20,000 nucleotides of DNA. Source: Jimgerdemannia flammicorona (lineage: Eukaryota). This document shows positions 1 to 20,000 of this stretch, in pieces; the stretch's first letter is position 1; the number at the start of each line of letters is the position of its first letter. The notes under the pieces were generated by a model. It had not been told where the DNA came from. It saw only the letters and a program-made list of their open reading frames with translations, and did not search any database. A program made the position numbers and the translations under genes. The stretch covers positions 45,256 to 65,255 of the forward strand of contig RBNJ01000011.1 of assembly GCA_003990765.1 (NCBI GenBank), in the 5' to 3' direction.

Positions 1-850
1 TGTGTACCTTGGGCAGAGCATGAAACACGGGTAGCTTACAATTGATGGGCTCCATGAGGTGTTCCCAAATCGGCATACAATTATGATTACCGATGCAGAA
101 CTCGAGTAGACCAAGAAGGTCTAGCCTCACTGATTCCTTAACGTTATCAATCGTAGAGGGATCATACACATACGCAGGATCGTGAAGGAGAGACCGAAGA
201 CCGTCGAGATATAGAGCGCACGGTATAACGGTGAACCCCAGATTTTTGTCAGTAAGACAGACAGTGAAGTCGTCATGAGTATGGATGCCTTTAAGAAGGC
301 GGCGGAACTTCTTCGGTACAAGCACGCCGGACACATTCGTCGTGGGTCGGACAGCTTGATTCAAAGCGGCACTCATATGGAGCATAATTTGCATATTTTC
401 CATACAATGCGGCGGTCACCATTTAGATGGCACCCAGGCAGAGATCTCCAGGACGTCGTCAGGATTACCCATAGAGGTCCAGAAGGTGGCAAGGTCGAGA
501 CGCCGTTGGAACGACGACAACGAAATCGGGTCGATGGTGCTGTTCATCGATGCCGACCCGGGGAGAACGAACTTAGGGCCAAAGTTCAGCATATACGTGA
601 GCTCGGGGGTAAGCCAAGGCAGAGGTATATTGGTAACAAAGCCCTCCTTGGTAAACATCCGAAACCGAGGGACGAAAAACTGACTTAAGCAAGAACCGGG
701 AAGAGAAGACACGAAGGCAAAATCTTCAATTGGTGTCGAGGCCGCTACCCCACGTGGAATGGGGACATCAGGGCCAAACCACACTGCCAGGAAGTCGTAT
801 AAGACTTCCGGGCTGGGGACCTCTAGTTTTTCGACGCTAGAGGGCAGGCA
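1..850 (-). pseudogene. 5' part of the PLE RT ORF in the inverted copy, with an in-frame TGA at 416-418; truncated by the window edge
   Basis: Mirror of 4325-5174. Encodes LNFGPKFVLP, FQRRLDL and LPVFHALPKVH. Confidence 0.8.
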
Positions 851-1983
851 TCACCGGCGTTATGCCAGATGACATGATGTTTAGCGGCAGTACACTTGTT
901 GCACTGCGGCACAAATGCCCTGGCGGTGCTCTTAGACGAGCGGCTCGAAGTCGACGAGCGGCTGGTCCCGGTAGAAGCAGAAGAAGCAGACGGGGAAGGC
1001 GAAGCCTTACGTGCTCGCTTGACCCCTTTTACAGAACCCTCGGTCACAGCCGGGGCTAGGGGGCAAGGACCTCGGTGGGCCTTTGTAGGCACACCAAGGC
1101 GTCCAGAACAGCTATGGCAGTTCGGCGCAACAGAAGCCGAGGTCACCTTCACCTCCTTCACCTTTCCCGCAGCCCCCGCAGGCGCGGCAGTAGAGGGTAG
1201 GGGGGTGGGGACACTCTTTTTCGGTCGGGCGGAACCGGCGGCAGCAGAAGCAAATGTGCGTTTGGCACCTGGAGTAACAATCTCGGGGCGCTTCCCAAGC
1301 TCCTCAACTGCGGCTTTGCGGGCGGCAGCGGAAATCCCATCTTGCAGGGAGGAGGACACAGAGGCTATCGGGCAGACAGCAGCGGCAGCGGCTTTGGCAG
1401 CGGCGGTGGCGGCGAGACGGTGAGACTGATGCACGACAACGTCAAAACCACGGAACAAGAACAAGTTTGTCTTAGCTCTGTCAGTGGCAGCAAGGGTAGC
1501 GATATTCTTGGCTACCCCAAGAGTGATATCGACCGATACACCAAAAAATTGATGGGCATTGGAAGAACCACCCATGGCCTTGTCGATTTTAGCATGCTGG
1601 TCCTTAGTATGCTGGGCGGCAGCTTCCTGATCAGAAATGGCAGCCTCGATCGCGGCAGTGGCACGGTGCTTAGCTTCTGCCAAAGCAGTAGTAAGGGCGG
1701 CATCATGCTGTTCCTCAGGTAGGAGGGCGATGGCAGCAGCTACCTTCTTGGAAGGAGTAAACCTCCAATCGGCAACTTGGGCCCATAGGAAATCGGCACA
1801 GCATTCTTTCGCGGCGGCGACCTCAAGGGCGGAGAGCACTCCGGTGCAAGCAGCACGGAAGTAGGTAGGGACCTCGGCAGACGTGGCAGCAACGTAGGCT
1901 GCAAGGTTGTCGAACTCTGCCAAATCGGCGAAGGAAGCTTTGGGGATGGCAGCATCGCCATCTATATTCATATTATCTATCAT
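823..1983 (-). CDS. PLE ORF1, 386 aa, intact: Ala-rich helical N-terminus, basic/Ser-rich linker, two CCHC-type Zn-binding motifs (gag-like nucleic-acid-binding protein)
   Basis: ATG lies 6 nt downstream of the pLTR end. Motifs CHSC-x10-H-x3-C and CNKC-x9-H-x5-C. Homologous copies at 3192-4352 and 17686-18844. Confidence 0.8.
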   Translation of the reverse strand: MIDNMNIDGDAAIPKASFADLAEFDNLAAYVAATSAEVPTYFRAACTGVLSALEVAAAKECCADFLWAQVADWRFTPSKKVAAAIALLPEEQHDAALTTALAEAKHRATAAIEAAISDQEAAAQHTKDQHAKIDKAMGGSSNAHQFFGVSVDITLGVAKNIATLAATDRAKTNLFLFRGFDVVVHQSHRLAATAAAKAAAAAVCPIASVSSSLQDGISAAARKAAVEELGKRPEIVTPGAKRTFASAAAGSARPKKSVPTPLPSTAAPAGAAGKVKEVKVTSASVAPNCHSCSGRLGVPTKAHRGPCPLAPAVTEGSVKGVKRARKASPSPSASSASTGTSRSSTSSRSSKSTARAFVPQCNKCTAAKHHVIWHNAGDACPLASKN

Positions 1984-2487
1984 GTTGTGTATTATAAAAC
2001 GAGTAGATAATAGCGGAAGAGGTTTGAGCGAGATGTGATACTGTTACGGTGGATATGAAGGTCAGCAGTAAAAGGTCAAACAGTTATGAAAAGCTTATGT
2101 GAATTTTCATGACGGAACAGAAAGTGGAATAAAGTGTTTTCCGAAGCAAGGTGCAATAGATCTGCAACCCGCCCACGGCACCGCAGTTTGCGATGGTCTT
2201 TATTCAATTTGAGAAACAAAGTTCGGATAAACAAAGACACGGATCTAACCCCGGAATTCCGGAATTGGACAGGTGCATAAGTACCCGAGCCTTGCCCCGA
2301 TCCAAACAAAGGTCTGAATCGGGCTTCGTTGATCTATACACGTGACGGGCCATTAAAAACCCGATATATAAACAATCGGAAAAAGGTACCGGTCACATGA
2401 TCTAATGTTACACAATCAGTAAACAATGCCAAAAACGGAACTAGACCAATGACGCAACACGTGTCGTCACGTGATTGTCACTTATAG

Positions 2488-3185
2488 GTTTAAAAACGCG
2501 AAAAATCGCCGGACAACCTCTGGCGCGAGGCTCTAGGCCTGACGCCTGCGTACCTACGCTCTGTGACACCTGTCTACCTCCACTCGCTTCGCTCGCTCTG
2601 GTGTCGAGGCTCTACTCCGCTCTGGTCATGAGGCTCTAGGCCTGACGCCTGCGCCTTCGGGTGCCGACGATTTTTAGGTTTTTAAACCTATAAGTGACAA
2701 TCACGTGACGACACGTGTTGCGTCATTGGTCTAGTTCCATTTTTGGCATTGTTTACTGATTGTGTAACATTAGATCACGTGACCGGTACCTTTTCCCGAT
2801 TGTTTCTATATCGGGTTTTTAATGGCCTGTCACGTGTGTAGATCGACGAAGCCCGATTCAGACCTTTGTTTGGATCGGGGCAAGGCTCGGGTACTTATGC
2901 ACCTGTCCGATTCCGGAATTCCGGGGTTAGATCCGTGTCTTTGTTTATCCGAACTTTGTTTCTCAAATTGAATAAAGACCATCGCAAACTGCGGTGCCGT
3001 GGGCGGGTTGCAGATCTATTGCACCTTGCTTCGGAAAACACTTTATTCCGCTTTCTGTTCTGTCGTGAAAATTCACATAAGCTTTTCATAACTGTTTGAC
3101 CTTTTACTGCCGACCTTCATATCCGCCGTAACAGTATCACATCTCGCTCAAACCTCTTCCGCTATTATCTACTCGTTTTATAATA
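2488..3185 (+). repeat. 5' pseudo-LTR (698 bp)
   Basis: Direct repeat of 6386-7083. Starts GTTTAAAAACGCG and ends TTTTATAATA; no TG..CA termini. Confidence 0.92.
2700..2836. promoter_or_regulatory. Cluster of four CACGTG (E-box/bHLH-type) motifs plus ATTGG in the pLTR; probable promoter
   Basis: CACGTG at 2702, 2712, 2776 and 2831, about 350-490 bp upstream of the ORF1 ATG. Repeated in the other two young pLTRs, each with one site mutated. Confidence 0.45.
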
Positions 3186-3191
3186 CACAAC

Positions 3192-4352
3192 ATGACAGAT
3201 AATATGAATATAGATGGCGATGCTGCCATCCCCAAAGCTTCCTTCGCCGATTTGGCGGAGTTCGACAACCTTGCAGCCTACATTGCTGCCGTGTCTGCTG
3301 AGGTCCCTACCTACTTCTGTGCTGCTTGCACCGGAGTGCTCTCCACCCTTGAGGTCGCCGCCGTGAAAGAACGCCATGCTGATTTCCTACGGGCCCAAGT
3401 TGCCGATTGGAGGTTTACTCCTTCCAAGAAGGTAGCTGCTGCCATCGCCCTCCTACCTGAGAAATAGCGTGATACCGCCCTTACTACTGCTTCGGCAGAA
3501 GCTAAGCGCCGCGCCACTGCCGTGATCGAGGCTGCCGTTTCTGATCAGGAAGCTGCCGCCCAGCATGCTAAGGACCAGTGTGCTAAAATCGACAAGGCCA
3601 TGGGTGGTTCTTCCGATGCCCATCAATTTTTTGGTGTATCGGTTGATATCACTCTTAGGGTAGCCAAGAATATCGCTACCCTTGCTGCCACCGACAGAGC
3701 TAAGACAAACTTGTTCTTGTTCCATGGTTTTGACATTGTCGTGCGTCAGTCTCGCCGTCTCGCTGCCGCCGCCGCTGCCAAAGCCACTGCTGCTGCCATC
3801 CGCCCGATAGCCCCTGCGTCCTCCTCCCTGCAAGATGGGATTTCCGCCGCCGCCCGCAAAGCCGTAGTTGAGGAGCTTGGGAAGCGCCCCGAGATTGTTA
3901 CTCCGGGTGCCAAACGCACATTTGCTTCTGCTGCCGCCGGTTCCGCCCGACCGAAAAAGAGTGTCCCCACCCCCCTACTCTCTACCGCCGCGCCTGCGGG
4001 GGCTGCGGGAAAGGTGAAGGAGGTGAAGGTGACCTTGGCTTCTGTTGTGCCGAACTGCCGTAGCTGTTCTGGACACCTTGGTGTGCCTACAAAGGCCCAC
4101 CGAGGTCCTTGCCCCCTAGCCCCAGCTGTGACTGAGGGTTCTGTAAAAGGGGTCAAGCGAGCACGTAAGGCTTCGCCTTCCCCGTCTGCTTCTTCTGCTT
4201 CTACCGGGACCAGCCGCTCGTCGACTTCGAGCCGCTCATCTAAGAGCGCCGCCAGGGCATTTGTGCCGCAGTGCAACAAGTGTACTGCCGCTAAACGTCA
4301 TGTCGTCTGGCATAACGCCGATGATGCCTGCCCTCTAGCGTCGAAAAACTAG
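3192..4352 (+). pseudogene. PLE ORF1 interrupted by a premature TAG at 3465-3467
   Basis: The 91-aa and 276-aa ORFs are in one frame and together match the 386-aa ORF of the inverted arm, where this codon is CAG. Confidence 0.88.
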
Positions 4353-6355
4353 AGGTCCCCAGCCCAGAAGTCTTATACGACTTCCTGGCAGCGTGGTTTG
4401 GCCCTGATGTCCCCATTCTACGTGGGGTAGCGGCCTCAACACCAATTGAGGATTTTGCCTTCGTGTCTTCTCTTCCCGGTTCTCGCTTAAGTCAGTTTTT
4501 CGTCCCTTGGTTTCGGATGTTTACCGAGGAGGGCTTTGTTACCGATATACCTCCGCCTTGGCTTACCCCCGAGCTCATGTATATGCTGAACTTTGGCCCT
4601 AAGTTTGTTCTCCCCGGGTCGGCATTGATGAACAGCACCATCGACCCGATTTCGTTGTCATCGTTCCAATGGCGTCTCGACCTTGCCACCTTCTGGACCT
4701 CTATGGGTAATCCTGACGACGTCCCGGAGATCTCTGCCTGGGTGCCATCTAAATGGTGACCGCCGCATTGTATGGAAAATATGCAAATTATGCTCCATAT
4801 GAGTACCGCTTTGAATCAAGCTGTCCGACCCACGACAAATGTGTCCGGTGCGCTTGTACCGAAGAAGTTCCGCCGCCTTCTTAAAGGCGTCCGTACTCAT
4901 GACGACTTCACTGTCTGTCTTACCGACAAAAATCTGGGGTTCGCCATTATACCGCGCGCTCTATATCTCGACGGTCTTCGGTCTCTCCTTCACGATCCTG
5001 CGTACGTGTATGATCCCTCTATGATTGATAACGTTAAGGAATCAGTGAGGCTAGACCTTCTTGGTCTACTCGAGTTCTGCATCGGCGATCATAATTGTAT
5101 GCCGATTTGGGAACACCTCATGGAGCCCATCGATTGTAAGCTACCCGTGTTTCATGCTCTGCCCAAGGTACACAAAGGAGCTCGCGTGGCATGGCACCCT
5201 ATCGTTGGTGCGTTTAACTCTCCTACGACCGAGATTTCGCGTTTCCTATCTCGCTTTCTCCATCTGTGGTCGGCCCATCTGCGCCATAATGTGGGTTACT
5301 CCCGTTATTCACCTTTACGTGATACGCTCGAACTGCTTCAATTGGTTCGATCGGATTACCTTGACATGTCAGATTGCTCATACGTTGCTACTGGAGATTT
5401 CGCCGCCTTCTACACCAGGATCACATTAGATGAGTGCATCGACTGCCTCACCTTTTTGTCGATGGTGGCCTTCCCCCCTGGCTCTTTGCCACTTGAAGCC
5501 GTTCTCGGCCTTATCCGCATAGTCATGACTCGTATGACGTTTACATCCGCCATCAGTTCCTTCCGCTCCGTGACTGGTATTGCTATGGGCACTAATTGTG
5601 CTCCGGATCTTGCCAATCTTGTTGGTTTCGCTCATGAGTTGCACGCCTCGCAAGCGCCCGATCATCTGCTTAGCCGAGCCGTCGCTGCCGGGCTAAAGTT
5701 CCGCCGGTATATTGATGATCTTATCATCTTTACGCCCGCGATTATGGACTTGGCCTTGATCTTTGCTGCCGTGTACCCTCTGCACCATCGTATCGAATGG
5801 GAAGTCTTGTCCGCCGGACCGTGCCATTACTTAGACCTGGAAATCCGAGTCACACCGTTCCGCACAGGCCACTTTGCCAAGTTCCCGCGTAGTACTCAGT
5901 TTGTCGACTGGTTGAGCAATCATCCTAGGAAGACACTCTGTCTATGCATTGTAAATGAGGCCCGCCACCTTTCGCTTCTCTGCTCTTCTCGCCGTGATTG
6001 GCTTGATGAGTGTCGGTCTTTGGCCGAGTTCCTGGTTCACAGGAAAGGATACCCTGTTGATGTTGTAACCGCTCAATTGAGTTTGGTTGATTGGCTTGAG
6101 GTCCGAACTTCACTTCTCACCCCTCCTCTTATTTCCCACCCCCCCATCCCCCACTCCGCTTTTCCTCCCCTGTTGCTTGTCGTCCAATATGACACGGCCC
6201 GATGGCTACATCAACAGCCCGACAAGACTCTACATACCGCTTTGCTTCGTTTTGGTTTCCCTGTGACTGCCTGACAACCGATCATCGCCCGAAAGAATGG
6301 TTTTACCATTCTTAATGCTGTCTCAAACACCAGCTTCGCTTTAAGTCCTCCTTGA
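4325..6355 (+). CDS. Penelope-like reverse transcriptase (ORF2); longest open part 4772-6274 (500 aa), in-frame TGAs at 4757 and 6272, no GIY-YIG domain
   Basis: PLE N-terminal motifs LNFGPKF and TDKNLG. Core motifs FHALPKVHK..WHPIV, GDFAAFYTRI, GIAMGTNCAPDLANL, RYIDD, YLDLEI and SNHP. A PLE-like C-terminal segment PIIARKNGFTILNAV lies after the 6272 TGA. The frame is open from 4325 and overlaps the ORF1 end in the -1 frame. Confidence 0.88.
4343..4389 (+). promoter_or_regulatory. Candidate -1 ribosomal frameshift signal (G_AAA_AAC before the ORF1 stop, plus a downstream hairpin)
   Basis: TCG AAA AAC TAG ends ORF1 inside the ORF1/ORF2 overlap. GAAGTC-ttatac-GACTTC stem at 4367-4384 (GGAAGTC/GACTTCC in the inverted arm), extendable by GCC/GGC. 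The old copy reads A_AAA_AAA TAG. Confidence 0.6.
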
Positions 6356-6385
6356 AGGCCGCACCGCTTGTACGTGCCGTGCGAT

Positions 6386-7083
6386 GTTTAAAAACGCGAA
6401 AAATTGCCGGACAACCTCCGGCGCGAGGCTCTAGGCCTGACACCTGCGTACCTACACTCCATGACGCCTGTCTACCTCCGCTCGCTTCGCTCGCTCCGGT
6501 GCCGAGGCTCTACTCCGCTCCAGTCGCGAGGCTCTAGGCCTGACGCCTGCGCCTTCGGATGCTGACGATTTTTAGGTTTTTAAACCTATAAGTGACAATC
6601 ATGTGACGACACGTGTTGCGTCATTGGTCTAGTTCCGTTTTTGGCATTGTTTACTGATTGTGTAACATTAGATCACGTGACCGGTACCTTTTCCCGATTG
6701 TTTCTATATCGGGTTTTTAATGGCCCGTCACGTGTGTAGATCGACGAAGCCCGATTCAGACCTTTGTTTGGATCGGGGCAAGGCTCGGGTACTTATGCAC
6801 CTGTCCGATTCCGGAATTCCGGGGTTAGATCCATGTCTTTGTTTATCCGAACTTTGTTTCTCAAATTGAATAAAGACCATCGCAAACTGCGGTGCCATGG
6901 GCGGGTTGCAGATCTATTGCACCTTGCTTCGGAAAATACTTTATTCCACTTTCTGTTCTGTCATGAAAATTCACATAAGCTTTTCATAACTGTTTGACCT
7001 TTTACTGCCGACCTTCATATCCGCCGTAACAGTATCACATCTCGCTCAAACCTCTTCCGCTATTATCTACTCGTTTTATAATA
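6386..7083 (+). repeat. 3' pseudo-LTR followed by an A11 tail
   Basis: Direct repeat of 2488-3185, with an A-run to 7093. Confidence 0.92.
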
Positions 7084-7093
7084 AAAAAAAAAA

Positions 7094-7144
7094 CAATGGT
7101 TGATTCGAATCAATCCAGATTAAATTGACTCATTAGGAGCACTA
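7094..7144. mobile_element. Terminal fragment of a hAT-like TIR element/MITE abutting the PLE tail
   Basis: Ends ...ACTCATTAGGAGCACTA, matching the termini of the 9588-10011 element (TAGTCCTCCAAAATGAGT / GGGAGCACTA). Confidence 0.6.
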
Positions 7145-7660
7145 TTATCAAGTTATCCAATATTCCCAGAGAGTCTGCCAATTCAGAAGAATCTATGTCA
7201 AACTAAGTTATCTACCAAAACTAAGTTATCTGAGTTATTAAATCAAATTTCCCACTAAATACAAAATACTACTAAGATCATTATACTGAAATCATATAAG
7301 GAAACTACCAAATTATCAGACTGATCTATATGAGGAACTCACTTATACTATATAAGAGATTATTATATAAAAATTATATACTTTTAGAAGATTATGTACT
7401 ACTACTTAAGAAAGAAACTACTAAATTAGTAAATCACTATATTATACTAAATCACCACTATATCTAAGAACTATTCCAATAAAGAAATTGACATACAAAT
7501 ATATAACTATATTCAGATTTAACTATTATACTACTAAATACTAAGTACCTTAAGAATTATAAAATATTTTATTGCTTTTTAACAAAATAACTAGAGGCTC
7601 AAGTCAAACTATATCAATTCTCAACTTTGTAATTTGTCTCTATTGAGCTAAGTATATTAT
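7145..7660 (+). repeat. 3' half of a decayed Gypsy LTR
   Basis: Homologous to ~13980-14441 (aagttatctacc repeats; taactagaggctcaag...aatttgtctc.attgagc.a.gtatatta). Confidence 0.8.
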
Positions 7661-8021
7661 TCTAGTGTCAAATATTATAGAGCTAGATATTATAATTTTT
7701 AAATATATAATATAAAGTTATTAATATTATTTTTATAAGCAAATTCTATAAGCTTATAATAATCAATAGCAAAATTTACATCTTTGCAAATTATATGATA
7801 TTGTATTCAAATAATGCAACATTATATAAAAGAATGCTAGAAGCTATATACAATCTTTAATATTACTTCAATATAGTCTTTTAATATAGTAAATACTGCT
7901 TATATTTAATTACTAGTATAAAAATTATTTTTCATATCTTAATAATGATTTCAGTCTTAATAATCTGTTTTTAGAAATTGAAACATCAACTAATGATAGT
8001 TTAACTGATAATATTATTCTA

Positions 8022-8120
8022 GAAGTCAATATACCTATTAATAATAATATTTCAGAAATCAATATACCAACTATCAATATAAGTATAGAAATCAATATAT
8101 TAACTATTGATAACAATACT
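8022..8120 (+). repeat. Degenerate 33-bp tandem repeat, 3 copies
   Basis: GAARTCAATATA at 8022, 8055 and 8088. Confidence 0.55.
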
Positions 8121-8559
8121 ATGAAAATTAATCAATAATATAAGTCTGAAATATATTATATCAAATAAAATATAAAACTAGAGATTGATATATCTAATAG
8201 TAATATATTTTTGACAAATCTCTATAATTGAAAATCTTTAACTCAATTAAATCAGTAGTATGGTATTCTTTATTTGTTTAGATTTATTATCTATAATATA
8301 TTGATAATAGTTTTAGAGAGTAGATTATTATAATATAAAGTCAAGAGATTATTTAAAGAAGATTTCTTACTATTCTTTAAATATTCACAATAATTAAATA
8401 AATATTCTCTTTGGTAATATAACTTTCTTCTCCTTATCTTTATTATAAATATTATTATCTATCTTTTCTTCTATTTTCTTTAGATATAGTGCTTAAATTA
8501 TCTTTATATTATATACTTATAAAAGGACTATAGAGAAGCTTAATGAGATAGTAGTATAT

Positions 8560-9587
8560 TATAATGTGCCTGACTCAATGGAGGTAAATTATAAGATTGG
8601 GAGTTGGTGTAGTTTGACTTGAGCCCCTAGTTACTTTATTAAAAGTAATAAAATATTCTTAGTATTTAGTGGTACATATAATAGTCAAAGCTGGATATCT
8701 GTGAGTAATTTGTGTATCAATTTCCTAATTGGGATAGTTCTCTGGGTATAGTAGTAATTTGTGTAAATGGGTTTCCTTCTTGGATCAATTTGAGAATTAG
8801 TAGAATTCATATATAGTATGATGATCTCCAAAAGTATATGATTTCTGGTATGATGATCTTAGCAGATCTTTTTATATAGATTTGATGAATAACTCAATTT
8901 GGTGTAGATTTACTGAAATAGTAGCTTACTGGGAATTATACTGGTAGTGGGTTCTTCAAATTGGGCTTACTGGGAACAATAACTCAGATATTACAGATTC
9001 TTCTTAACTGACAGCTTCAACTGGGAATATGAATAGCTGACAGCTTTGGAAAGAGTCTCTTGTCAAAGTTACATCAAAGACTAACTTTGTTTATATAACA
9101 GATCACTGTGAAGTTATATCAGAAACTGGCTTAAGTAAGGCAGCTTTCTTTTAGGCTTTCTGAGAATGTAAAGAATAACTTGGAAATGGCAGCAAAGTTC
9201 TTCCTTGAACTTTGATAGCAAACTTGGATTCTTTAGGCTTATCTGGTAAGTATATCAATAGTGTAGCTTATTTCTTAAGTAGCAGGTTCTTCAGGCTTAG
9301 TCTGGTAAGCATACTAATAATTTCAAAGGCAGCAAAGTTCTTCACTTAAACTTGGTAGCAAAATCAGCTTTATATTAGAAAGTGGACCAGAGTGGAGAAA
9401 TAAGCTCACAATCTCATAGTAGTGGCTATAGAGTTTCTTTTGAAGTATGGTAGGCAGACTTGTTTTTTACTTCAATTTCAGTTTATATAGTTGTAGTTAC
9501 TACAGATTACTATATTGCTAACTATAGATTGCTAACTATAGTACATAAGTATTCCTTGAGGGTACAGTGTATCTTAAGAGTATAATA
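8560..9587 (-). repeat. Gypsy LTR copy in reverse orientation, lacking its 5' ~170-190 bp
   Basis: Reverse complement homology to ~13530-14441 (e.g. 8560-8670 versus 14331-14441; aagaactttgct motif; ggaatacttat). Confidence 0.8.
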
Positions 9588-10011
9588 TAGTCCTCCAAAA
9601 TGAGTTGAATCAATTCGAATTGAATCAAATTGAGGGTTAAATGAGTCAAATCGAATTGGGGATTTTTCAATTCAAATCAATTCAAATCAAATCAAAAGTC
9701 AAATCAAATTGAGGGTCTGATTCAAACCCTAAATTTCAAAATGCAATAACTCAGCGTAAACCCATTCAAATCTAACATACTTTAGCTTGTTAGAATCACA
9801 TTAATACGGTGAATCTAACAAGCTAAAATACGTTAAATTTGGATGAGTTTTCGTCGAGTTATTACATTTTGAAAATTAAGATTTGAATCGAACTTCAAAT
9901 CAAATTGGACCTTTGATTTGATTCAAATCGAATTGAATTGGACCCTTGATTCGATCGAATTGAATCGAGTTTGGGCCAAATTCAATTTAATTCAATTTAT
10001 TGGGAGCACTA
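9588..10011. mobile_element. Palindromic non-autonomous TIR element (MITE/foldback, hAT-like TAGT termini), 424 bp
   Basis: Imperfect TIRs TAGTCCTCCAAAATGAGTTGAA / TTCAATTTATTGGGAGCACTA. Subterminal AATTG/AATCA/TTCAA pentamer arrays. Long central hairpin at ~9731-9877. Confidence 0.75.
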
Positions 10012-10499
10012 GACCAGGTTCTCCTTCCTCATCAAGAACCCCTGCCTCATCTGGCTATTAGCTATCACATTTCTTTTTTTTTTTCCTAATTCTCCATCAT
10101 ACTCTTATCAACAGTTACTCCCCTAGCCACAGCACCCCCAATATCTATGCCCACATCCCCACCTGAGTACCACTCTCCCTTCTGATACTAGTTTTGTCCT
10201 TCCCTTCAGCAGTACCAGCCCTAGTTCTAGCTGGCCATTCACTCACCTTTATCTTGTCTGCAAAGCTAGAGGGGCCAGACTCTCCCTCAGTTCCTCCTGA
10301 TACCAGTCCTTCTCCAGAGCCTTCTCTATCCTTCAACCCTCCAAAAGCCCCCATCTCCAGTCTATAACCTCTCCCCACATTCTGCCAGCCAAATACCCTG
10401 AGTCTACCTGATCCAGTACACTCATCAGAACTCTTGCTGGATGACATTTTTATAGTACCTTTTCTCTAAGTTGTATCGAAAACCATTACTTGAAGTTGG

Positions 10500-12800
10500 T
10501 ATAACATGAATTATATAGGAGAAAGGTATGATTACCTAAAGATATTTGAAAAGGAGTATATTTAAGAACTCTTGGACAATAGAGTCACCTGACCCTCTAC
10601 TAGTCCTTGGGCCAGTTCTATACTTATTGTATCAAAGAAAGGAGGATGAAGACTCTGTATAGATTACAGAAAACTCAATTCAGTAACTGAAAAGAATATC
10701 TATCCTTTGCTTAGAATTGATGACCTTTTGGACCAATTATAAGATACCAGATACTTCAGCAGTATAGACCTTTTGCAGGATTCTATAAGATCCCTATAGA
10801 CCCAAAAGACATTCAGAAGACAGTCTTTCTTGCTCTAGAAAAACTGTTTAAATACCTCTGAATACCCTTTGGACTTTGCAATATACCTCCCACCTTCTAG
10901 AAAATGATGAATTCAGTCTATATCTCTCTGATCCACTACTGCCTAATTGTATATATGGATAATTCAAACATCTATTCAGTAAATTTCAAGAAACATCTAT
11001 ACTATCTAGAAGAATTCTTTAAGCTCACTCACAAAAACCACCTAAGACTCAATACTAAGAAATGCTACTTTGGGAAACAGAAACTTGAATTCCTTAAATT
11101 TATAGTTTTGAAAGAAGAAATCCATACAGACCCAAAGAAAACTGAGAAGATCAACAATTGGCCAGTATCCAAGACTCCAAAGGAAATACTATACTTTCTA
11201 ATACTAGTATTCTTCTACAGAAGGTTTATTAAGGACTTTGCCTAAATTGCTATCCCAATTTGAATCTTTCTCAAGAAAGAAATATCTTATAAATAGACAG
11301 AATCACAAGAACTAGCCTTCAAAGAACTCAAGCACTACATAACTATAGCACCAATCCTTGTATACCCCAATCTACAGAAGCCATTCATCTTATATATAGA
11401 TACTTTCAAGAATAGCCTGAGAGTCATCTTAGCTCAAGAAGGATCTGATCAATAGTATCATGTGATAGCTTATATAAGTCAAGCTACCAATTAGTAGTAA
11501 ATAAATTATGGCAGCACTAAATTGGAATGTCTTGCAGTCATATGAGCAGTTACTCTGTTCAAGCATTACTTTATCAGAAAAAGATTCACTCTGATAACAG
11601 ATCATATAGCTATTCAACTATAAGAAACCTATCAGAATCCTAGCCTGCTGGATTCTTATCCTCTAGGATTACAAAATCACCATCATTTATAAAGCAGAGA
11701 AAGCTTACAATAATATTGATGTACTTTCTCATCAACTCTAATAAACCAGAAGAAAGGTGTCTCAAGGAACTATACTCTAAAGGAAGCTTCTCTAACCATC
11801 AAGATACAAGAAGACCTCATCTGAAAAGAACATCAGAAAGTCTATTAAGGACAGACAAATATAGAAGAAAAGCTATGAACAATATATCAACATTAGCTCA
11901 ATCTCAGAAGACAAGTCCAGGATATACTCAAGAAATATGATATCTATCAGAAGTACTAAGAAAGAAAGAACCACCAAGCACTATTATAACCAATTATACC
12001 ACTAGACAATATCTTTCAAAAATGAGTAGATATAATTGGACCTCTATCAGTACACTAAGAAGAAACAAGTATATTCTTATATTTGTAGAATATCTGACCA
12101 AGTGGCCTGAGGCTTTTTCTATAGAAATTACAGATGTCTTAACTATTGTAGACCTTCTCCATAGACTCACTCTCAGATATAAACTCTCAGAAGAACTTAT
12201 CTCTGACTGAGGTACAGAATTCATCAACAACATAATTATAAGTTATGCCTGAATTCACAAGATCTATCTCAAATAGACTATATCATATTACTCTTAGACC
12301 AATGGTATAATAGAAAAAATAAACTAAACTATAAAGAAAGAACTTGTCTAAGTCAATTCTACCAACTGAGATCTCTGCTTATCTGAGATCTTATGGGAAA
12401 TCTGGAACACCCCTGCTGCCTTTATCAAATAAAAGTCATTCAAAATGATATTTATCAAGAAAACTAGAACTGCTGACTATGAGAATCTCAGAGACCTCCT
12501 CAAGAAGGCAGAACTGTTACATAATCAAACATAAGTTCAGATTATCAAAGTTTAGGAAAGACAAAAGAAGTACTATGATCAAAAGTAAAAGGATTAGGAG
12601 ATCAAGATTATAGATCAAGTACTAGTTTGGAAAAGTATAATTGAAACAAATTTTGCTGCCAAACAAGAGCCCAAATGAAAAAGATCTTATCTTATATACA
12701 ATATCAGAGGAACTAGTATCTATTTAAGAAGTATAAATAGACAAACTCTCAGGACACCAGTACACATCAATTACCTCAAGATATATATCTCTCTCTACTA
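10500..12800 (+). pseudogene. Decayed Ty3/Gypsy pol (RT - RNase H - integrase)
   Basis: [27 protein letters not shown] (from 10602), [24 protein letters not shown]. RNase H: PFILYID, NYGSTKLECLAV, FTLITDH. Integrase: NKYILIFVEYLTKWPEAF, LISD*GTEF, TNGIIE, VHINYLK. Many stops and frameshifts. Confidence 0.92.
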
Positions 12801-13352
12801 TAAACTAGACAATTGACCAGTATCTCCAGACCCTTATCCTGAGTTCATTCTAATCTCTCTCAGTTCTCCTTCTACAATTCTGATAAGTCAATGGAAACCC
12901 CCTCCAGCAAATCCAGATTCATCAGAAGAATCTCATCCTGATCAGATATTTACTGCAAGTCTACCAGCTACAGGTCTACTATATAATTAGAGAACAATTG
13001 CAGAACCTTCTAGCAGCAGACCTAACCTACATCAGGAACTCCACTGGCTTCACTCAGAAAAACAACATTGCTGTAGACAGATTGTATATAATCTATAAAC
13101 AAAACATTCTAGCACTGATATAGGCCCAATTCTCTCTAAATGATATACAAAATATGAATTCCACTACCTACTAAAGTATCATCAACTATATTGAGATCCT
13201 GTTCTCAGAGAAAGAAGAAGAATCTGTCAAGTGGAGTAACTCTGATCTAAATGAAGATACTGGTTCAGATATTGATGCTGAAGATACTTATGTATATTAA
13301 AATAATGACTAAAGTATAGTCTGAGAATAGACTATCTTTTAGTGGAAGTTGA

Positions 13353-14441
13353 TATAATGAGTAACAGAATTGTACTGCCAAAAATTATAAATTAGCTATA
13401 TATCATATTTAGTATACTAAGCAACTAAGACTGCTTTACTATGTTAACTTATATAATTAGCCAGAGATATCAGAAACAGTATGTTTATCTATACCAAGTA
13501 GATATGTATACTATACTAAGTGGGTATACTATACTGAGTGGATATACTATATCATCTAGGAATACTTATTATAGATAGTAATCTATAGTTAGCAATATAG
13601 TAACTAGATAGCAACCAGAACTATATAAAATATTCCAGAGACAAGAGTGAATAAACTTTAGTCTGAAAAGTTGAAGTAAACTAAAAAAAACCTTTAAAGA
13701 TTGATTGATATACTTGCTAGATAAGTCTAAAGAAATCTGTCAAGTTCAAGAAAGAACTTTGCTATCTTTTGAAGAATTTACTATTTAAGGAAAAGCTATT
13801 ATTGTTAAGGAAGTCTGCTATATTTTATCCACTATCTGGCCACAAAGTCTGTCTGTTAACACAACTTTACAGTAAACTCATTTGCATAAATAAAGTCAGT
13901 CTTTAATATAACTTTACTAAGAAGAAGAAAATCTGAGTTATTATTCAAGAATCCAACTGATTCAGGAAGAATTCATACTATCTAAGTTATCTACCATTCT
14001 TAGAAGAACTGCTAAGTTATTATTCTCAGTAAGTCTGATTCAGACCAAAACTAAGTTATCTACCAAATCAAGTTATCTACCAGAAATTACATACTTTTGG
14101 TAATTACTACCACTTAAGGAGAAAACTACTAAATTGCCAGATTATCATACATAAGGAACTCACTGTACTACATAGAGATCATTATGCTATATAAGATATT
14201 GTCATGCTGAAATTACATATTTTGGAGAATACTTATATTATATATAAAATTACTGCTATATCTAGAGAACTATCTCAATAAGGAAATTGATATACAAATT
14301 GACTGCTGTATTCAGATTAACTATTATATTACTAAATACTAAGAATATTTTATTACTTTTGACAAAGTAACTAGAGGCTCAAGCTAAACTACATTAACCC
14401 TCAACCTTATAATTTGTCTCCATTGAGCCAGGTATATTACA
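13353..14441 (+). repeat. 3' LTR of the Gypsy element (~1.09 kb)
   Basis: Follows a purine-rich tract (agtggaagttga, 13341-13352). Begins TATAAT (probably decayed TGTAA..) and ends ..ATTACA. Two further copies are in the window. Confidence 0.75.
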
Positions 14442-15685
14442 ATATAATATATATTTTCTAATTAGAGAAGATTATTTTTATAACTATTTAAATAAATTAT
14501 ATAATTGATATAATTATCTGCAAAATTATATAATAGTATTTAGGGTCTGAAAGAAATATATGTATTAGTAAAATATAATAAAAAGATCTCATAGTCAAAA
14601 CTATTTTTCTACTAAGATATCTATTATAAAATTATATATATATATATATTAGTCAATATAGAGTATTATATTATATTTAAAATATAAATATATATATATA
14701 GTAATATATAGCTATACCTTAGTAGTAATGATATATATTTATTATTCTAATATTTGATATCTAGAGTGATCTAGCAGCTAATATTTCTAGATATACTAGA
14801 ATAGAATCAATTACTTATAATTGAATATCTTTGTTCATTGAGTCTAGAATTGTAATAAATAGTCTATTCCTTATATTGTAATCAGATATAGGCAAATTTG
14901 TCTATAAAAAATTTAATTTAAAATTTTTAAATTTTTTTTTTTAATATAATATATTTTTTTTTATTATTATTAAATATATAAATAATAGAGGAAAATGTTA
15001 TATTGAGATATAATACTGATATGGTAGATATAAAGATCAGCAGTAAGAGTCAAGTAGATAGAAATAAAAAAGCTTATATAAAATTTTATAATAGAGTAAG
15101 AAAGTAGAATAAAGTATTTTCTGAAGCAAGATATAATTGATCTGTAACCCACTATTGACACCACAGTCTGTGATAGTCTTTATTCAAATTTGATAATAAG
15201 GTTTGATTATAAGAAACATAGATCTAATCTCAGAATTCTGGAATCAGAATAGTGTATAAGTTCCTAAATCATTACTCAATCCAAACAAAAGTCTGAATTG
15301 GTCAATATTAATCTATGCATGTGACAGATCATTAAAAACTCAATATAGAAATGATCAGAAAAAGGTACTAGTTATGTGATCAAATATTATATATATATAA
15401 ATAATACCAAAAACAGAACTAGACCAATGATAGTTATGTAATTGTCACTTATAGAGTTTAAAACCTAAAAATCATTAGCACCTAAAGATACAGGCATAAG
15501 GCCTAGAGTCTTATAACTAGAGCAGAGTAGAGTCTTGATACTGGAGCAAGTAAAGTAAGCAGAGATAGACAGGTATTATAGAGTATAGATATACAGGTGT
15601 CAGGCCTAGAGCCTCACATTGGAGGTTGTCTAGCAATTTTTTTGCATTTTTAAACATTGCACAGCATATATGGACAGTACAGTCT

Positions 15686-17713
15686 TCAAAGAGAACTTAG
15701 AGTAAAACTAGTATTTGAGATAGTATTAAGAACAGTAAAACCATTCTTTTAGATAATGATTGGTCATCAGATAGTTGCAGAGAAATCAAAATGAAGTAAA
15801 GTAGTATATAGAGTCTTGTCAGGCTATTGATATAGCCATTAGGCTGTATTATATTAGATAACAAGCAATAGAGAAGGAAAAGTGGAGTAGGGAATAGAGG
15901 GGTGGGAAATAAGGAGAGGGGTTAAAAGTAAAGTTCAAATCTCAAACTAGTCAATCAAACTCAATTGAGTGATTATAATATCAACAGGGTATCCTTTTCT
16001 GTAAACCAGGAATTTGGCTAGAGACTAATACTCATTAAGTTAATTATGGTAAAATGAGTAAAGTAGTAATAGGTGGTAGATCTCATTTACAATATATAGA
16101 TATAGTATCTTTCTAGGGTAATTGCTCAATCAGTTGACAAGCTGAGTACTTTATGAAAATTTGGTAAAATGACCTATGCAGAATGGTGTGACTCAGATTT
16201 TTAGGTCCAAGTAATGATACAGCCCAGCAGATAAGACTTTCTATTCAATATGATAGTATGGAGAGTATATAGCACTGAAGATCAAGATTAAGTCTATAAT
16301 TGTAGATGTAAAGATAATTAAGTCATTGATAAACCAGCTGAACTTTAGCCTAGCAGCTATGACTCAACTAAGTAGATAATTAGGTATTTGTAAGGTATAT
16401 AATTTATAAGTGAAACCAATGATATTAGTAAGATCTAAAGTATAATTGGTACCTATAGTAATGTCAGTAATGAGTGAAAGGAACTAATAGCAGATGTAAA
16501 TATCATATGAGTCATGACTATGTAAATAAGGCCTAGAATGGCTTCAAGCAGCAGAGAGCTAGAGAGAAATACTATGGTCAACAGAAAGATGAGATAGTTG
16601 ATGCACTCATCTAGTGTGATCCTGATATAGAATATAGCAAAATTCCCAGTAGTGATGAGACAGCAATCAGATACATCCAAGTAATCTAATTGAACTAATT
16701 GTAAAAGTTTGAGCATATTATACAGAGGTAAATATCATAAATAATCCACATTATAGTATAGATAGACTAACTACAAATAGAGAAAGTAAGATAGAAAATA
16801 TGAAATCTCAATTATAGGAGAGTTACATAAATACTCTAATGATAGAGTATCATACTATGTAAGCTCTTTTGTATACCTTGGGTAGAGTATAAAACACAGG
16901 TAGCTTATAATCATTAGGTTCTATAAGGTGATCCCAGATCAGCATACAACTTGAATTTCTGATACAGAACTCCAATAGACTCAATAGATCTAACCTCACT
17001 GATTCCTTAATATTATCAATTATAGAGAAATAATTCACATATACAGGATTGTGAAAGAGAGACTAAAGACCATCAAGATACAGAGTATATAAAATAATAA
17101 TAAACTTCAGATTTTTGTTAGTAAGATAAACAGTAAAGTCATCATAAGTATAGACATCTTTAAGAAGACATCAAAACTTCTTCAGTATAAGTATACTAGA
17201 TATATTTGTTATAGGTCAGATAGCTTGATTCAACATAGCACTAATATGATGTATAATTTGTATATTTTCTATATAGTATAGTAGTTACCATTTAGATGAT
17301 ACCCAGGTAGAGATCTCTGAAATATCATCAGAATTACCTATAGAGGTCTAGAAGATGACAAGGTCAAGACACTGTTGGAATGACAATAATAAAATTAGAT
17401 TGATGGTACTATTCATCAATATCAACTCAGAGAGAATAAACTTTGAGCCAAAGTTCAGCATATACATGAGCTTGGGGATAAGCTAAGATAGAGGTATATT
17501 AGTAACAAAGCTCTCCTCAGTAAACATCTAAAACTGAGGAATGAAAAACTGACTTAAGTGGGAGCTGAGAAGAGTAGATACATATAAAGACAAAATCCTG
17601 AATTGGTATCAAGACTGCTACTCTATATAGAATGGGGACATTGGGGCCAAACCATGCTAATATAAGACATCCAGGCTGGGGATCTCTATTTTTTTGAAGC
17701 TAGAGGATAGATA
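15686..17713 (-). pseudogene. Decayed PLE reverse transcriptase
   Basis: Remnants KLPVFYTLPKVYK and TGNFAIFYIRITLDEC. YIDD has decayed to FIND at ~16323-16334. Confidence 0.88.
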
Positions 17714-18844
17714 TTATCAGCATTATACTAGATGATATAATATTTAGTAGCAGTATATTTATTGTATTGTGGTACAAATACCCTAGTGGTGCTCTTAGAT
17801 GAGTAGCTCAAAGTTGATGAGTAGCTGGTTCTAGTAAAAGTAGAAAAAACAGATAGGAAAAGAGAAGTTCTTTATACTCTCTTGGTCTCTTTTATAGAAC
17901 CCACTGACTTAGTAGGGGCTAGGGGGCAAGGATCTCAATGGATCTTTATAGACATACTAAGGCATCCAGAACAGTTGTAGCAGTTCAGTATAGTAGAGGC
18001 TAAAGTTATACACACCACCTTTATCTTTTCTATAGCCTTTGCAGATATGGCAGTCAAGAGTTGGATATTGAAGATACTCTTTTTCAGCTAAGTGGAATCA
18101 GTAGCAGTAGAAGCAAATGTACATTTGGTACCTAGAGTAACAATCTCAAAATACTTCCCAAGCTTTCAACTAGGACTTTATGGGTAATAGTGGTAATCTC
18201 TTTTTGAAGAGATGAAGATGTAGAGACTGTTGAGTAGACTACAGCAGTAGCAGCTTTAGCAGTAGTGATAGTAGCAAGATAGTGAGATTGATACATAATA
18301 ATATCAAAATTATGAAACAGAAACAAGTTTGTCTTGATTCAGTCAGTGGCAGTGAGGGTGATAATATTCTTACTAGCCTTTTGGGCAGTATTAGTAGGAA
18401 GCCCAAAAAAGGTGAGTGCTTCTAAGATACTTCTATGACTTTGTCAATTTTAGCATACTGGTCCTTAGCATGCTGAGCAGTAGTATTATTATCAGTTGTG
18501 GCAGTCTTGATTGTAGCTTTGGCATGGCACTTGATTTCTATAGATGCAGTAGTAAGGGTGGCATCATACTATTTCTCTGGAAGGAGGGCAATTATAGTAG
18601 CAATCTTCTTAGAAGGGGTAAACTTTCAATTAGCAAGTTGGGCCTACAGAAAGTCAGCATGGTACTCATATGTGATAGTCACTTTAAGGGCATGAAGTAC
18701 TCTAGTATAAGTAGCATAGAAGATAGTGGGGACCTCAATGGAAGAGATAGCCAAATAGATAGCCAGATTATCAAATTTCATCAAATTAGTAAAAGAAGTG
18801 ATGGGGACAGCAGTATTGCCATCTACATTCATGTTATCTATTAT
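17686..18844 (-). pseudogene. Decayed PLE ORF1
   Basis: Remnants MNVDGNTAVPITSFTNL..FDNLAIY and LFLFHNFDII; the start ATG is mutated to ATA. Confidence 0.85.
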
Positions 18845-19873
18845 GTTGTATATTATTAAATATGTAAATAATAGAGAAAAATGTTATATTGAGATATGAT
18901 ACTGATATAGTAGATATGAAGGTTGGTAGTAAGAGTTAAGCAGATGGAAACAAAAAAGCTTATGTGAAATTTTATGACAAAGCAAGAAAGCAGAATAAAG
19001 TATTTTCTGAAATAAGATACAATTGATCTATAACCCACTATTGGCACCACAGTCTGTAATAGTCTTTATTCAAATTTAATAATAAAGTTTGATTATAAGA
19101 AATACAGATCTAAACTCAGAATTCTGAAATCAGAATAGTGTATAAGTTCTCAGACCATTACTCAATCCAAACAAAAGTCTGAATCAGTCAATGTTGATTT
19201 ATACACATAACAGGCCATTAAAAATCCAATATAGAAATAATTGGAAAAAGGTACTAGTTATATGTATGATCAAATGTTACACATATATAAACAATACCAA
19301 AAATAGAACTAGACCAATAATAGTTATGTGTAAGTATGTAATTATCACTTATAGGTTTTAAAACCTAAAAATCATCAGTACTCAAAGGTGCAGATATCAG
19401 GCCTAGAGTCTTACAACCAGAGCAGAGTAGTATCTTAGCACTAGAGCAAGTAAAGCAAGTAGAGGTAGATAGGTATCACAGAGTATAAATATGTAGGTAT
19501 TAGACCTAAAGCCTTACACTGAAGGTTGTCTGGCAATTTTTAGAGTTTAAAACCTATAAGTGATAATCATATACTTATATATGACTATCATTGATCTAGT
19601 TTCATTTTTGATATTATTTATATATATATGTATAATATTTGATCACATGACTGGTACCTTTTCCTGATCATTTCTATATCAGATTTTTAATGGCCTATTA
19701 TGTGCATAGATTGACATTGATCAATTCAGACTTTTGTTTGAATTGGGTAATAGTCTAGAAACTCATATACTATTTCAATTCTGGAATTCTAGAGTTAAAT
19801 TCATATTTCTTGTAATCAAATCTTATTATCAAATTTGAATAAAGACTATTACAGACTATGGTGATAGCAGGTT

Positions 19874-20000
19874 TGTAAGAGGGTTGCTTTTTAGGGTAAC
19901 CGTTACGTAGTTCTGGAAGGGTTTTCTGGAAGTTCTGGATATTCTGGAAGACCGTTTTCCTATGGTCAAGATCAATTTCGTATGGAGTACGTCCTCTACG
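19874..20000. mobile_element. Start of a younger insertion, probably an LTR (TGTAAG...)
   Basis: PLE homology stops at ~19873. The sequence then begins TGTAAGAGG, retains CpGs and has repeated TTCTGGAA motifs. Confidence 0.5.

Follow-up and report, generated by a model that had tools for sequence, protein, structure and literature searches.

An endonuclease-less Penelope-like retroelement with an inverted partial copy joined to its 5' side at the foot of an element-encoded hairpin

The window, which is the whole 20,000-nt stretch of Jimgerdemannia flammicorona DNA that was analysed, contains two copies of a Penelope-like retroelement (PLE) family. Each copy has a full unit preceded by a pseudo-LTR (pLTR), together with an inverted partial copy that adjoins the upstream pLTR. 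The features are as follows.

1..2497, minus strand: inverted (left) arm, a copy of 2678-5174 in antisense, truncated by the edge of the window.
2488..2497, no strand given: junction overlap of 10 nt, GTTTAAAAAC, with which the inverted arm ends and the 5' pLTR begins.
2488..2687, plus strand: hairpin module of 200 nt at the pLTR start, with a terminal inverted repeat 2488-2512 / 2664-2687.
2488..3185, plus strand: 5' pLTR of ~698 bp, representing the 3' portion of a partial unit upstream and running directly into the full unit.
3186..7083, plus strand: complete unit, 3898 bp long; its last part is the 3' pLTR (6386-7083), which has a hairpin module too (6386-6585).
3192..4352, plus strand: right copy of ORF1; two Cys/His knuckle-like motifs lie close to the C-terminus.
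4325..6274, plus strand: ORF2, in the -1 frame, encoding a reverse transcriptase of the PLE type, its DKN motif at 4925 and its YIDD at 5708.
7084..7093, plus strand: A-tail (10 A) that follows the unit end ...TTTTATAATA and borders on AT-rich flank.
14950..19553, minus strand: second, old copy of the same family, with an A-tail at ~14950-14968, 3' pLTR at ~14965-15654 and 5' pLTR at ~18851-19553.
19545..19873, plus strand: inverted arm belonging to the second copy and ~325 bp long, mirroring 19032-19364 across a 179-nt spacer (19365-19543).

The pLTRs of copy 1 come from a partial tandem arrangement, a trait of PLEs, and the same layout is present in the second copy. Comparison of 2488-3190 with 6386-7088 gives 677 identical positions out of 703 at a spacing of 3898, and no A-tail is found at the internal joint between pLTR and unit of copy 1. 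The visible 3' ends of both copies bear A-tails and lie within AT-rich repeat DNA. ORF1 of the right copy is broken by a TAG at 3465-3467, where the left arm reads CAG at the equivalent site; the protein matches no Pfam family, and a search of 8000 scored candidates (223-711 aa) gave no relatives at E<=0.001. ORF2 contains an in-frame TGA at 4757-4759 that is common to both arms, and the part upstream of it (4325-4756) gives a match to the N-terminus of an endonuclease-containing (EN+) PLE protein that is not significant (E 3.3).

The identification of the element as a PLE, made in a preliminary description of this DNA, is borne out by the PLE-type reverse transcriptase motifs and by the PLE relatives of ORF2. 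Eighty relatives are found at E<=0.001, the best being P0002 (1e-83, 43% identity) followed by P0003 (1.3e-42), and the more distant ones carry PF26215 and PF28514, some of them also PF01541 (GIY-YIG). Seven aligned sequences share 28 invariant columns, including P-K-x-H-K, G-x-A-M-G, R-Y-x-D-D and S-x-H-P, and the DKN motif stands at residue 56. The Pfam RVT_1 match at ~5303-5752 is weak (2.3e-4) and falls below the cut-off. ORF2 stops where its EN+ relatives run on into a CxxC motif and the GIY-YIG domain. No GIY-YIG match is found in ORF1 or ORF2 at E<=1, nor in any of the 84 stop-to-stop frames of at least 35 aa on both strands of 2488-7094. Judged on its sequence, the element is a PLE without an endonuclease.

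A hammerhead ribozyme was considered as the feature that defines the junction and was rejected: no hammerhead family matched the window (E<=1) or the segment 6150-7150 (E<=10), in a search that could miss very divergent or dimeric minimal forms. Strings of the type CUGANGA...GAAA occur only in the ORF2 coding sequence and copies thereof. An association with telomeres was also rejected, the window containing no tandem repeats of the three types that were tried (TTAGGG, TTTAGGG and TTAGG) or of their complements.

The palindrome upstream of copy 1 is formed by positions 1-2497, which are the reverse complement of 2678-5174 around a 180-nt spacer, these limits being set where the ends match exactly. 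A repeat search of the window returned arms of 2504 nt each (1-2504 and 2671-5174, the strict limits plus 7 imperfect bases per side), 96% complementary and 166 nt apart, and in an ungapped comparison the two agree at 2398 sites and differ at 106, with 0 gap columns, which is 95.8% identity. Both results confirm the arms and spacer as they were first described, and a 2.5-kb repeat at 96% identity is far above chance. The scattered substitutions that had been reported between the arms are spread evenly over both arms and strands (30/27/25/22 for the transitions); 104 of them are transitions, 83 of these at CpG, and there are 2 transversions in 2504 sites.

The left arm contains part of the pLTR, the joint between pLTR and unit, an uninterrupted ORF1 and the first ~283 codons of ORF2, and in the alignment the unit start comes after the pLTR part. 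ORF1 lies here at ~823-1983 on the minus strand; its stop-to-stop frame was read as 826-2043, an open frame of 406 aa. The arm is at least 2.5 kb long and continues past window position 1. It had been proposed that the copied arm includes both ORF1 and the reverse transcriptase: all of ORF1 and the DKN motif (4925) are indeed present, whereas the catalytic core of the reverse transcriptase lies beyond the arm in the window, because the window ends first.

The differences between the arms also bear on the possibility that the palindrome is artefactual, either as a chimera made by fold-back or through the erroneous joining of two copies. Tandem and inverted PLE structures are described in part of PMC8557442 as troublesome for assemblies. 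However, substitutions without indels, most of them CpG transitions, follow a mutational pattern and not one of errors, and therefore indicate genomic decay and neither an assembly nor a read artefact. Moreover, a repeat of 10-24 nt is too short to mislead an assembler, and the same junction is found in the heavily diverged, effectively unique second copy. An artefact can hardly be credited.

At the junction, the 10-nt microhomology of the preliminary description reads as claimed at both sites when the sequence is read directly, with GTTTAAAAAC at 2488-2497 and GTTTTTAAAC at 2678-2687, and the same pair of sites, said to exist in the 3' pLTR, is found there at 6386-6395 and 6576-6585. The bases that follow, GCG at 2498-2500, agree with the direct pLTR (6396-6398) and not with the arm (sites 2675-2677). 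The inverted repeat extends past these 10 nt, across an internal loop of 3x2 nt, to AAAAATCGCCGG at 2501-2512 opposite CCGACGATTTTT at 2664-2675, and since it continues beyond the loop the unpaired centre is ~150 nt. The terminal 10-bp stem is composed entirely of A/T except for its end pairs, and the centre of the hairpin is GC-rich (62%) and partly self-complementary.

Folded as DNA of the cDNA strand, 2488-2687 gives -50.6 kcal/mol (z -5.59; 0/200 shuffles as good), and the hairpin persists in a 513-nt context (z -4.70). The RNA fold reaches -81.1 kcal/mol (z -4.77) with base 2488 paired with 2687, and the hairpin of the 3' pLTR is weaker (z -2.55; 1/200 shuffles as good). In the DNA, RNA and longer-context folds alike, pairing in the 200-nt stem-loop starts precisely at the first base of the pLTR. 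The inverted arm joins inside the 10-nt terminal repeat of this stem, at the foot of the hairpin.

Short-inverted-repeat-mediated palindrome formation leaves as its signature a large palindrome whose asymmetric spacer is flanked by a short inverted repeat. The structure here fits this signature, and with a hairpin that is stable as DNA it might have been generated after insertion, when a break or stalled fork near the pLTR allowed the short inverted repeat to fold and host synthesis to build the palindrome. The age of the arm argues against such an event. A segment of 520 bp is present three times, with raw counts of unique changes of 12 in the left arm, 4 in the right arm and 6 in the 3' pLTR, which become 9, 4 and 4 once 3 junction sites and 2 sites past the unit end are dropped. 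All four of the sites unique to the 3' pLTR are derived there, hence the arms share no change that postdates the split of the pLTRs, and, to the resolution of the comparison, arm and pLTR pair are of equal age. A post-insertion event would also need to have happened twice independently, in copies that differ greatly in age, and a chromosome-scale fold-back does not leave an arm of 325 bp that gives way to unrelated DNA, as it does in the second copy. Such an origin is regarded as decidedly improbable.

The second copy is 73% identical to copy 1, with 934 of the 1227 mismatches being C>T or G>A in the second copy and 198 transversions in 4572 aligned sites (4.3%). As read from the alignment, it is independent of copy 1 and much older. 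A segmental duplication as origin of both copies was rejected on the ground that the 3' flanks differ; the sole repeat shared by the flanks is a dispersed one of ~85-119 bp, which occurs three times and in the wrong relative orientation. A target-site duplication was not detected for the second copy, as nothing longer than 6 nt is common to 14840-14975 and 19850-19940, in DNA that is AT-rich and decayed. Its hairpin region folds no better than shuffled sequence (z 0.22; 117/200 shuffles as good).

In the second copy the inverted arm is attached at the repeat that is used in copy 1. It stops ~180 bp before the 3' end of the unit, inside the pLTR and without an A-tail. The CpG o/e is 0.00 at the end of the arm and then a normal 1.08 in the adjoining DNA, and a younger insertion at 19873 might interrupt the arm, in which case its true end would lie elsewhere. 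An inverted copy adjoining the upstream pLTR, which is frequent in PLEs though not obligatory, is hence found in 2/2 elements of the window, and in both elements with a visible 5' side it is placed at the same repeat, with the spacer oriented as in the full, A-tailed copy.

The reading favoured here, at a probability of about one half, is that copy 1 represents a moderately old insertion of an EN-less PLE whose inverted partial copy on the 5' side was made by fold-back of the cDNA. The minus-strand cDNA would be copied from the A-tail to the base of the 200-nt hairpin (position 2488), whereupon the cDNA's copy of the hairpin would form and leave its own 3' end base-paired. The polymerase would then extend this paired end along the cDNA, generating the sense strand from 2688 onward. 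Joining of the extended strand to the upstream target DNA, followed by copying of the whole folded strand, would produce the inverted arm, a single-copy spacer and the full element. The length of the arm would correspond to the point at which extension stopped, at least 2.5 kb in copy 1 and ~325 bp in the second copy, and both arms would afterwards have decayed independently by CpG-biased C-to-T change. We infer both that the end of the cDNA folded on itself and that it did so during integration. Against this reading stand the almost pure A/T composition of the terminal 10-bp stem, the number of junctions, which is two, the somewhat greater count of unique changes in the left arm and the extension of both target strands by an EN+ PLE protein in vitro.

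When snap-back of the minus-strand cDNA is simulated, the product is 7093 nt long and corresponds to window 1-7093 with no difference in length, all of its 103 mismatches falling within 43-2436, that is, in the diverged arm. The earlier proposal that a built-in inverted repeat folds back and self-primes thus stands in so far as the junction lies at the hairpin foot, the geometry fits and the arrangement recurs in the second copy. It had been put forward for cDNA or RNA; only the cDNA version gives the head-to-head orientation, whereas self-priming by the 3' end of a sense RNA would give a tail-to-tail one, as set out in a passage of PMC3846280.

The same layout may also be attained by two cDNAs that anneal at the repeat, or from a palindromic template. 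With two cDNAs, reverse transcription would be primed from both sides of a break and the products, meeting head to head, would anneal through the terminal repeat of the hairpin, the end of one at an internal site of the other, and be filled in, which yields the same inner junction and spacer as a fold-back. In experiments described in part of PMC11167929, an EN+ PLE protein was purified and found to cleave both target strands in vitro and to extend them, which favours this route; it also begins reverse transcription at internal RNA sites, which could explain an arm that lacks the last 180 bp. The term 'inverted 5'-truncated copy', used for the arm in a section of PMC8557442, points in the same direction, and the slightly higher number of unique changes in the left arm (9 vs 4, 4) is compatible with a separate template. 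However, the present element has no endonuclease of its own and the second copy's arm ends early and lacks an A-tail, both of which count against two cDNAs, and the orientation of the spacer, which is required by a fold-back and a 50:50 outcome here, weighs slightly against the two-cDNA route. It is considered rather unlikely.

A palindromic template would consist of a head-to-head dimer master that is transcribed through its junction, with 5' truncation of the cDNA leading to varied arm lengths. This accounts for an identical junction in copies of differing age and arm length, and bidirectional or antisense PLE transcription is raised in a passage of PMC3846280. Against this, the RNA would be a long perfect hairpin, which is a poor template and a silencing trigger (inverted Penelope repeats are tied to siRNAs in part of PMC3681739), a promoter reading into the arm would be required, and the position of the junction exactly at the hairpin foot would be left unexplained. 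An inherited structure is therefore judged very unlikely.

Beyond fold-back of the cDNA in this one insertion, the hairpin might conceivably act as a dedicated cis-acting primer of the second strand, with the EN-less PLE integrating at interstitial AT-rich breaks by cDNA fold-back and the arms, present in 2/2 copies here, arising as a routine by-product and not by accident. This broader view is unlikely. If true, it would amount to a distinct, hairpin-dependent mode of integration for EN-less PLEs away from telomeres.

In the twin priming of L1, target-primed reverse transcription yields a 5' segment that is inverted and attached, through microhomology, to a 3' segment in direct orientation; the two derive from different stretches of one RNA and overlap only slightly, if at all. 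The joining of inverted to direct sequence is similar here, but at least 2.5 kb is duplicated; the arm repeats 2678-5174, which is also present in direct orientation, and twin priming of the L1 style was rejected for this reason. In the classical cDNA 'snap-back', the 3' end of a first-strand cDNA folds and primes the copying of itself. In contrast to this, the fold point of the present element would be set by a 200-nt hairpin that the element itself encodes, and the product is fixed in the genome.

The mechanism and the architecture have both been published for PLEs and are not new, and knowledge of the class is unchanged by the locus. Self-priming was inferred from palindromes at inverted PLE junctions in part of PMC3846280, and an inverted 5'-truncated copy beside the upstream pLTR is drawn as a usual PLE feature in PMC8557442, where a section attributes tandem and inverted PLE ends to 'still undefined features' of the transposition cycle. 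Pen2a_Av and Pen3a_Av of Adineta vaga, and the Naiad/Chlamys/Penelope scheme (PMC8557442 Fig. 2), likewise have partial-tandem pLTRs with a head-to-head inverted copy at the upstream pLTR, and the joints reported in a passage of PMC3846280 consist of a 15-bp overlap and of palindromes of 18 bp and 38 bp at the pLTR 5' ends. Unlike those Penelope-type elements, which encode a GIY-YIG endonuclease and in many cases also have a hammerhead ribozyme and a 'tail' of 30-40 bp, the element described here has no endonuclease and no hammerhead that could be found, ends in an A-tail and has an ORF1 upstream. Its junction repeat is not contiguous but interrupted by a structured spacer of ~150-180 nt, and its arm reaches at least 2.5 kb. 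Long inverted repeats are also reported, in part of PMC3681739, for new Penelope copies in transformed Drosophila melanogaster; they appear on transposition as well, but belong to an EN+ element in an animal host.

Coprina and Athena resemble the present element in having no endonuclease. Coprina-1_Alen has two ORFs, DKN, reverse transcriptase and thumb motifs, and flanking direct repeats of 422 bp (PMC13159263), and an ORF1 separated by a frameshift is drawn for PLEs in the scheme explained by the Fig. 1 legend of PMC8557442. Whilst Coprina/Athena elements are situated at chromosome ends, with reverse-complement telomeric repeats and hammerhead motifs, the element here carries an A-tail inside AT-rich repeat DNA. 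Palindromes of this kind present difficulties to assembly and can be a source of hairpin RNA that feeds silencing. The locus provides a clean example at nucleotide level, with a junction at the hairpin foot, copies of two ages and an arm as old as the pLTR pair, and it fits the self-priming idea of PMC3846280. The passages of that paper which treat fungal and protist EN-deficient PLEs describe them as lacking the direct or inverted pLTR organisation; contrary to that statement, the layout of pLTR plus inverted copy is here extended to an EN-less element.

The window opens with a large inverted repeat, whose arms (1-2504 and 2671-5174; 2504 nt, 96% complementary) are placed by repeat search 166 nt apart. 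In an ungapped comparison the arms agree at 2398 positions and differ at 106, with no gap columns. The palindrome recorded in the preliminary description is thereby confirmed, its limits of 1-2497 and 2678-5174 around a 180-nt spacer being the ends that match exactly. The left, inverted arm is truncated by the window edge and its length is at least 2.5 kb. GTTTAAAAAC at 2488-2497 and GTTTTTAAAC at 2678-2687 read as had been stated, and the pair recurs in the 3' pseudo-LTR (pLTR) at 6386-6395 and 6576-6585, as had also been noted. The terminal repeat is 10 bp as first seen but extends further, with a 3x2 internal loop beyond which 2501-2512 pairs with 2664-2675 over 12 positions, one of them mismatched. 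GCG at 2498-2500 agrees with the direct pLTR and differs from the arm.

The arm differences comprise 104 transitions and 2 transversions. A CpG context accounts for 83 of the 104, with per-site rates of 0.246 at CpG, 0.047 at CpA, 0.014 at CpC and 0.003 at CpT, and the derived T or A are evenly distributed over both arms (30, 27, 25, 22). This is the signature of CpG cytosine deamination or of a CpG-biased repeat-mutation process, working on two genomic sequences separately. Read or assembly error does not produce such a pattern, and an assembly artefact is the most improbable of the explanations considered.

The direct repeat 2488-3190 matches 6386-7088 at 677 of 703 positions with a spacing of 3898, and its two occurrences delimit a unit of 3898 bp. 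The upstream one, the pLTR, runs straight into the unit with no A-tail between them (...TTTTATAATA/CACAAC); the downstream one closes with that ...TTTTATAATA as well and is followed there by 10 A. The unit carries two frames:

3192-4352, + strand: ORF1
4325-6274, + strand: ORF2, opening in the -1 frame relative to ORF1

ORF1 matches no Pfam family and has no relatives at E<=0.001. For the 504-aa part of ORF2 downstream of an in-frame TGA, 80 relatives reach E<=0.001; no endonuclease (EN) domain is listed for the two closest (P0003 is full length without one), and more distant ones bear PF26215, PF28514 and sometimes GIY-YIG. In a seven-sequence alignment 28 columns are invariant, the LPKxHK, GxAMG, RYxDD and SxHP motifs among them; a DKN motif is also present, and ORF2 stops where EN+ relatives carry on. 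The two strands of 2488-7094 together give 84 frames of at least 35 aa, none of which matches GIY-YIG. Hammerhead motifs were found neither at E<=1 in the whole window, nor at E<=10 in 6150-7150, nor by a core-motif scan, and three common types of telomeric repeat are absent from the window. By its RT motifs and relatives and its pLTR layout the element is a Penelope-like element (PLE), one that is endonuclease-less, two-ORF and A-tailed.

ORF1 terminates at TAG 4350-4352 directly after G_AAA_AAC (4343-4349), with ORF2 open in -1 from 4325, which looks like a putative programmed -1 frameshift linking ORF1 to the RT; an A-run occupies the equivalent overlap in an older copy of the element. The in-frame TGA of ORF2 (4757-4759) is common to both arms (mirror 416-418), and the matching site is TAA in the old copy and Asn in one aligned relative. 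It may reflect an ancestral CpG-bearing CGA mutated in parallel, or a stop already in the template RNA. A TAG at 3465-3467 breaks ORF1 in the right copy whereas the left arm retains CAG (1708-1710), so that the sole uninterrupted ORF1 of the window lies in the inverted arm.

The first 200 nt of the pLTR (2488-2687) are predicted to fold into one long imperfect stem-loop, the first base paired with the last, and its foot is the exact start of the 5' pLTR. The inverted arm joins inside the terminal 10 nt of this hairpin. As minus-strand DNA the fold reaches -50.6 kcal/mol (z -5.59), which none of 200 shuffles equals, and is retained in a 513-nt context (z -4.70); as RNA it reaches -81.1 kcal/mol (z -4.77), with a centroid close to identical with the minimum-energy fold. 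The 3' pLTR copy folds more weakly (z -2.55; 1 of 200 shuffles as good), and the same region of the decayed old copy folds no better than shuffles (z 0.22). The spacer holds two direct copies of GAGGCTCTAGGCCTGACGCCTGCG (2530-2553 and 2632-2655) with a third, GAGGCTCTA, in between, and in the predicted folds partial self-complementarity of these repeats forms much of the long stem.

The old copy carries an inverted arm of its own:

~14950-19553, - strand: second PLE copy
19545-19873, + strand: its inverted arm, mirroring 19032-19364 across 179 nt

The two copies are 73% identical, with 3345 matching positions, 1227 mismatches and 80 gap columns. Changes of C>T or G>A in the old copy make up 934 of the mismatches, and 198 are transversions; at 4.3% of aligned sites, against 2 in 2504 between the palindrome arms, these place its origin long before that of the palindrome. 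Within the old copy the internal (3' pLTR) context, ...GTGCAAT/GTTTAAAAAT..., parallels ...GTGCGAT/GTTTAAAAAC... in the young copy, and at the old copy's 5' pLTR the inverted arm precedes the same repeat. The joint is thus common to the nucleotide in both elements with a visible 5' side. The old arm bears substitutions of its own lineage, lacks an A-tail and stops about 180 bp before the 3' end of the unit, at a point where CpG observed/expected passes from 0.00 to 1.08. The two copies have unrelated flanks and arms that differ greatly in length.

CpG observed/expected is about 1.0 in the young copy (1-7082) and the final 130 bp (19871-20000), 0.00-0.04 in 7094-9000 and 10900-19870, and 0.21 in 9000-10900. 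In the old copy C-to-T change affects 64% of CpG, 47% of CpA, 28% of CpC and 14% of CpT sites. The host seems highly efficient at clearing cytosines from old repeats, via methylation-linked deamination or a RIP-like process, and this loss accounts for the 21-33% GC across most of the window. The AT-rich DNA separating the PLE copies holds a dispersed short repeat (about 85-119 bp, 79-86% identity) in three copies of mixed orientation (7577-7660, 8552-8670 and 14331-14449). At 10901-11455 (+) lies a decayed LTR-retrotransposon pol relic, split into short frames (RVT_1 E 1.8e-5, below cut-off; RT_RNaseH_2 E 5.5e-10). The near-contiguous inverted repeat at 9668-9940 (132-nt arms, 79% complementary, 9 nt apart) is probably a small foldback or MITE-like repeat; its match to the plant miRNA-precursor family MIR6440 is sub-threshold (39 bits against a gathering score of 95).

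The timing of arm formation was approached through 520 bp present as left arm, right 5' pLTR and 3' pLTR. Unique changes number 12, 4 and 6, respectively, or 9, 4 and 4 after dropping three left sites in the junction (2675-2677) and two 3' pLTR sites past the unit end (3186 and 3188). All four remaining 3' pLTR-unique sites are C/G-to-T/A changes within the 3' pLTR itself, and thus the arms have no common change postdating pLTR separation. On this comparison the inverted arm of the young copy is as old as the insertion, at a resolution that is coarse. Both this timing and the recurrence in two copies disfavour fold-back of host DNA after insertion, which is improbable; inheritance from a palindromic master RNA is less likely still.

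The top-ranked explanation, with a probability of about 0.5, is that the cDNA (antisense) strand would fold back on itself during integration to produce the inverted arm. When this was simulated by extending the 3' end of the reverse complement of 2488-7093 by 2688-5174 and then complementing it, the product had the same length as window 1-7093 and all 103 mismatches were confined to the diverged arm, at 43-2436. Fold-back demands a spacer oriented like the full, A-tailed copy, and this is so in both cases. The preliminary description had allowed cDNA or RNA to fold back: only the cDNA version yields the head-to-head form, and self-priming by the 3' end of a sense RNA would yield tail-to-tail, as PMC3846280 also has it. 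The geometry of self-priming is sound and the second case strengthens it, but the interpretation is neither proven nor new. A rather unlikely alternative is two-sided priming, with cDNAs annealing at the same repeat; in its favour, purified EN+ PLE protein is described as extending both target strands and initiating internally in vitro (PMC11167929).

For PLEs such an architecture has already been published, as has the mechanism proposed here. PMC3846280 describes an overlap of 15 bp, along with palindromes of 18 and 38 bp at pLTR 5' ends, and PMC3681739 describes new Penelope copies with long inverted repeats. Unlike those inverted-arm cases, the present element is without endonuclease; EN-deficient fungal and protist PLEs are said in PMC3846280 not to have this organisation, though a two-ORF Coprina element does show 422-bp direct repeats in PMC13159263 (2026). 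It differs further from the published cases in not lying at a telomere within the window, in a junction repeat interrupted by a structured spacer of about 150-180 nt, and in an arm of at least 2.5 kb.
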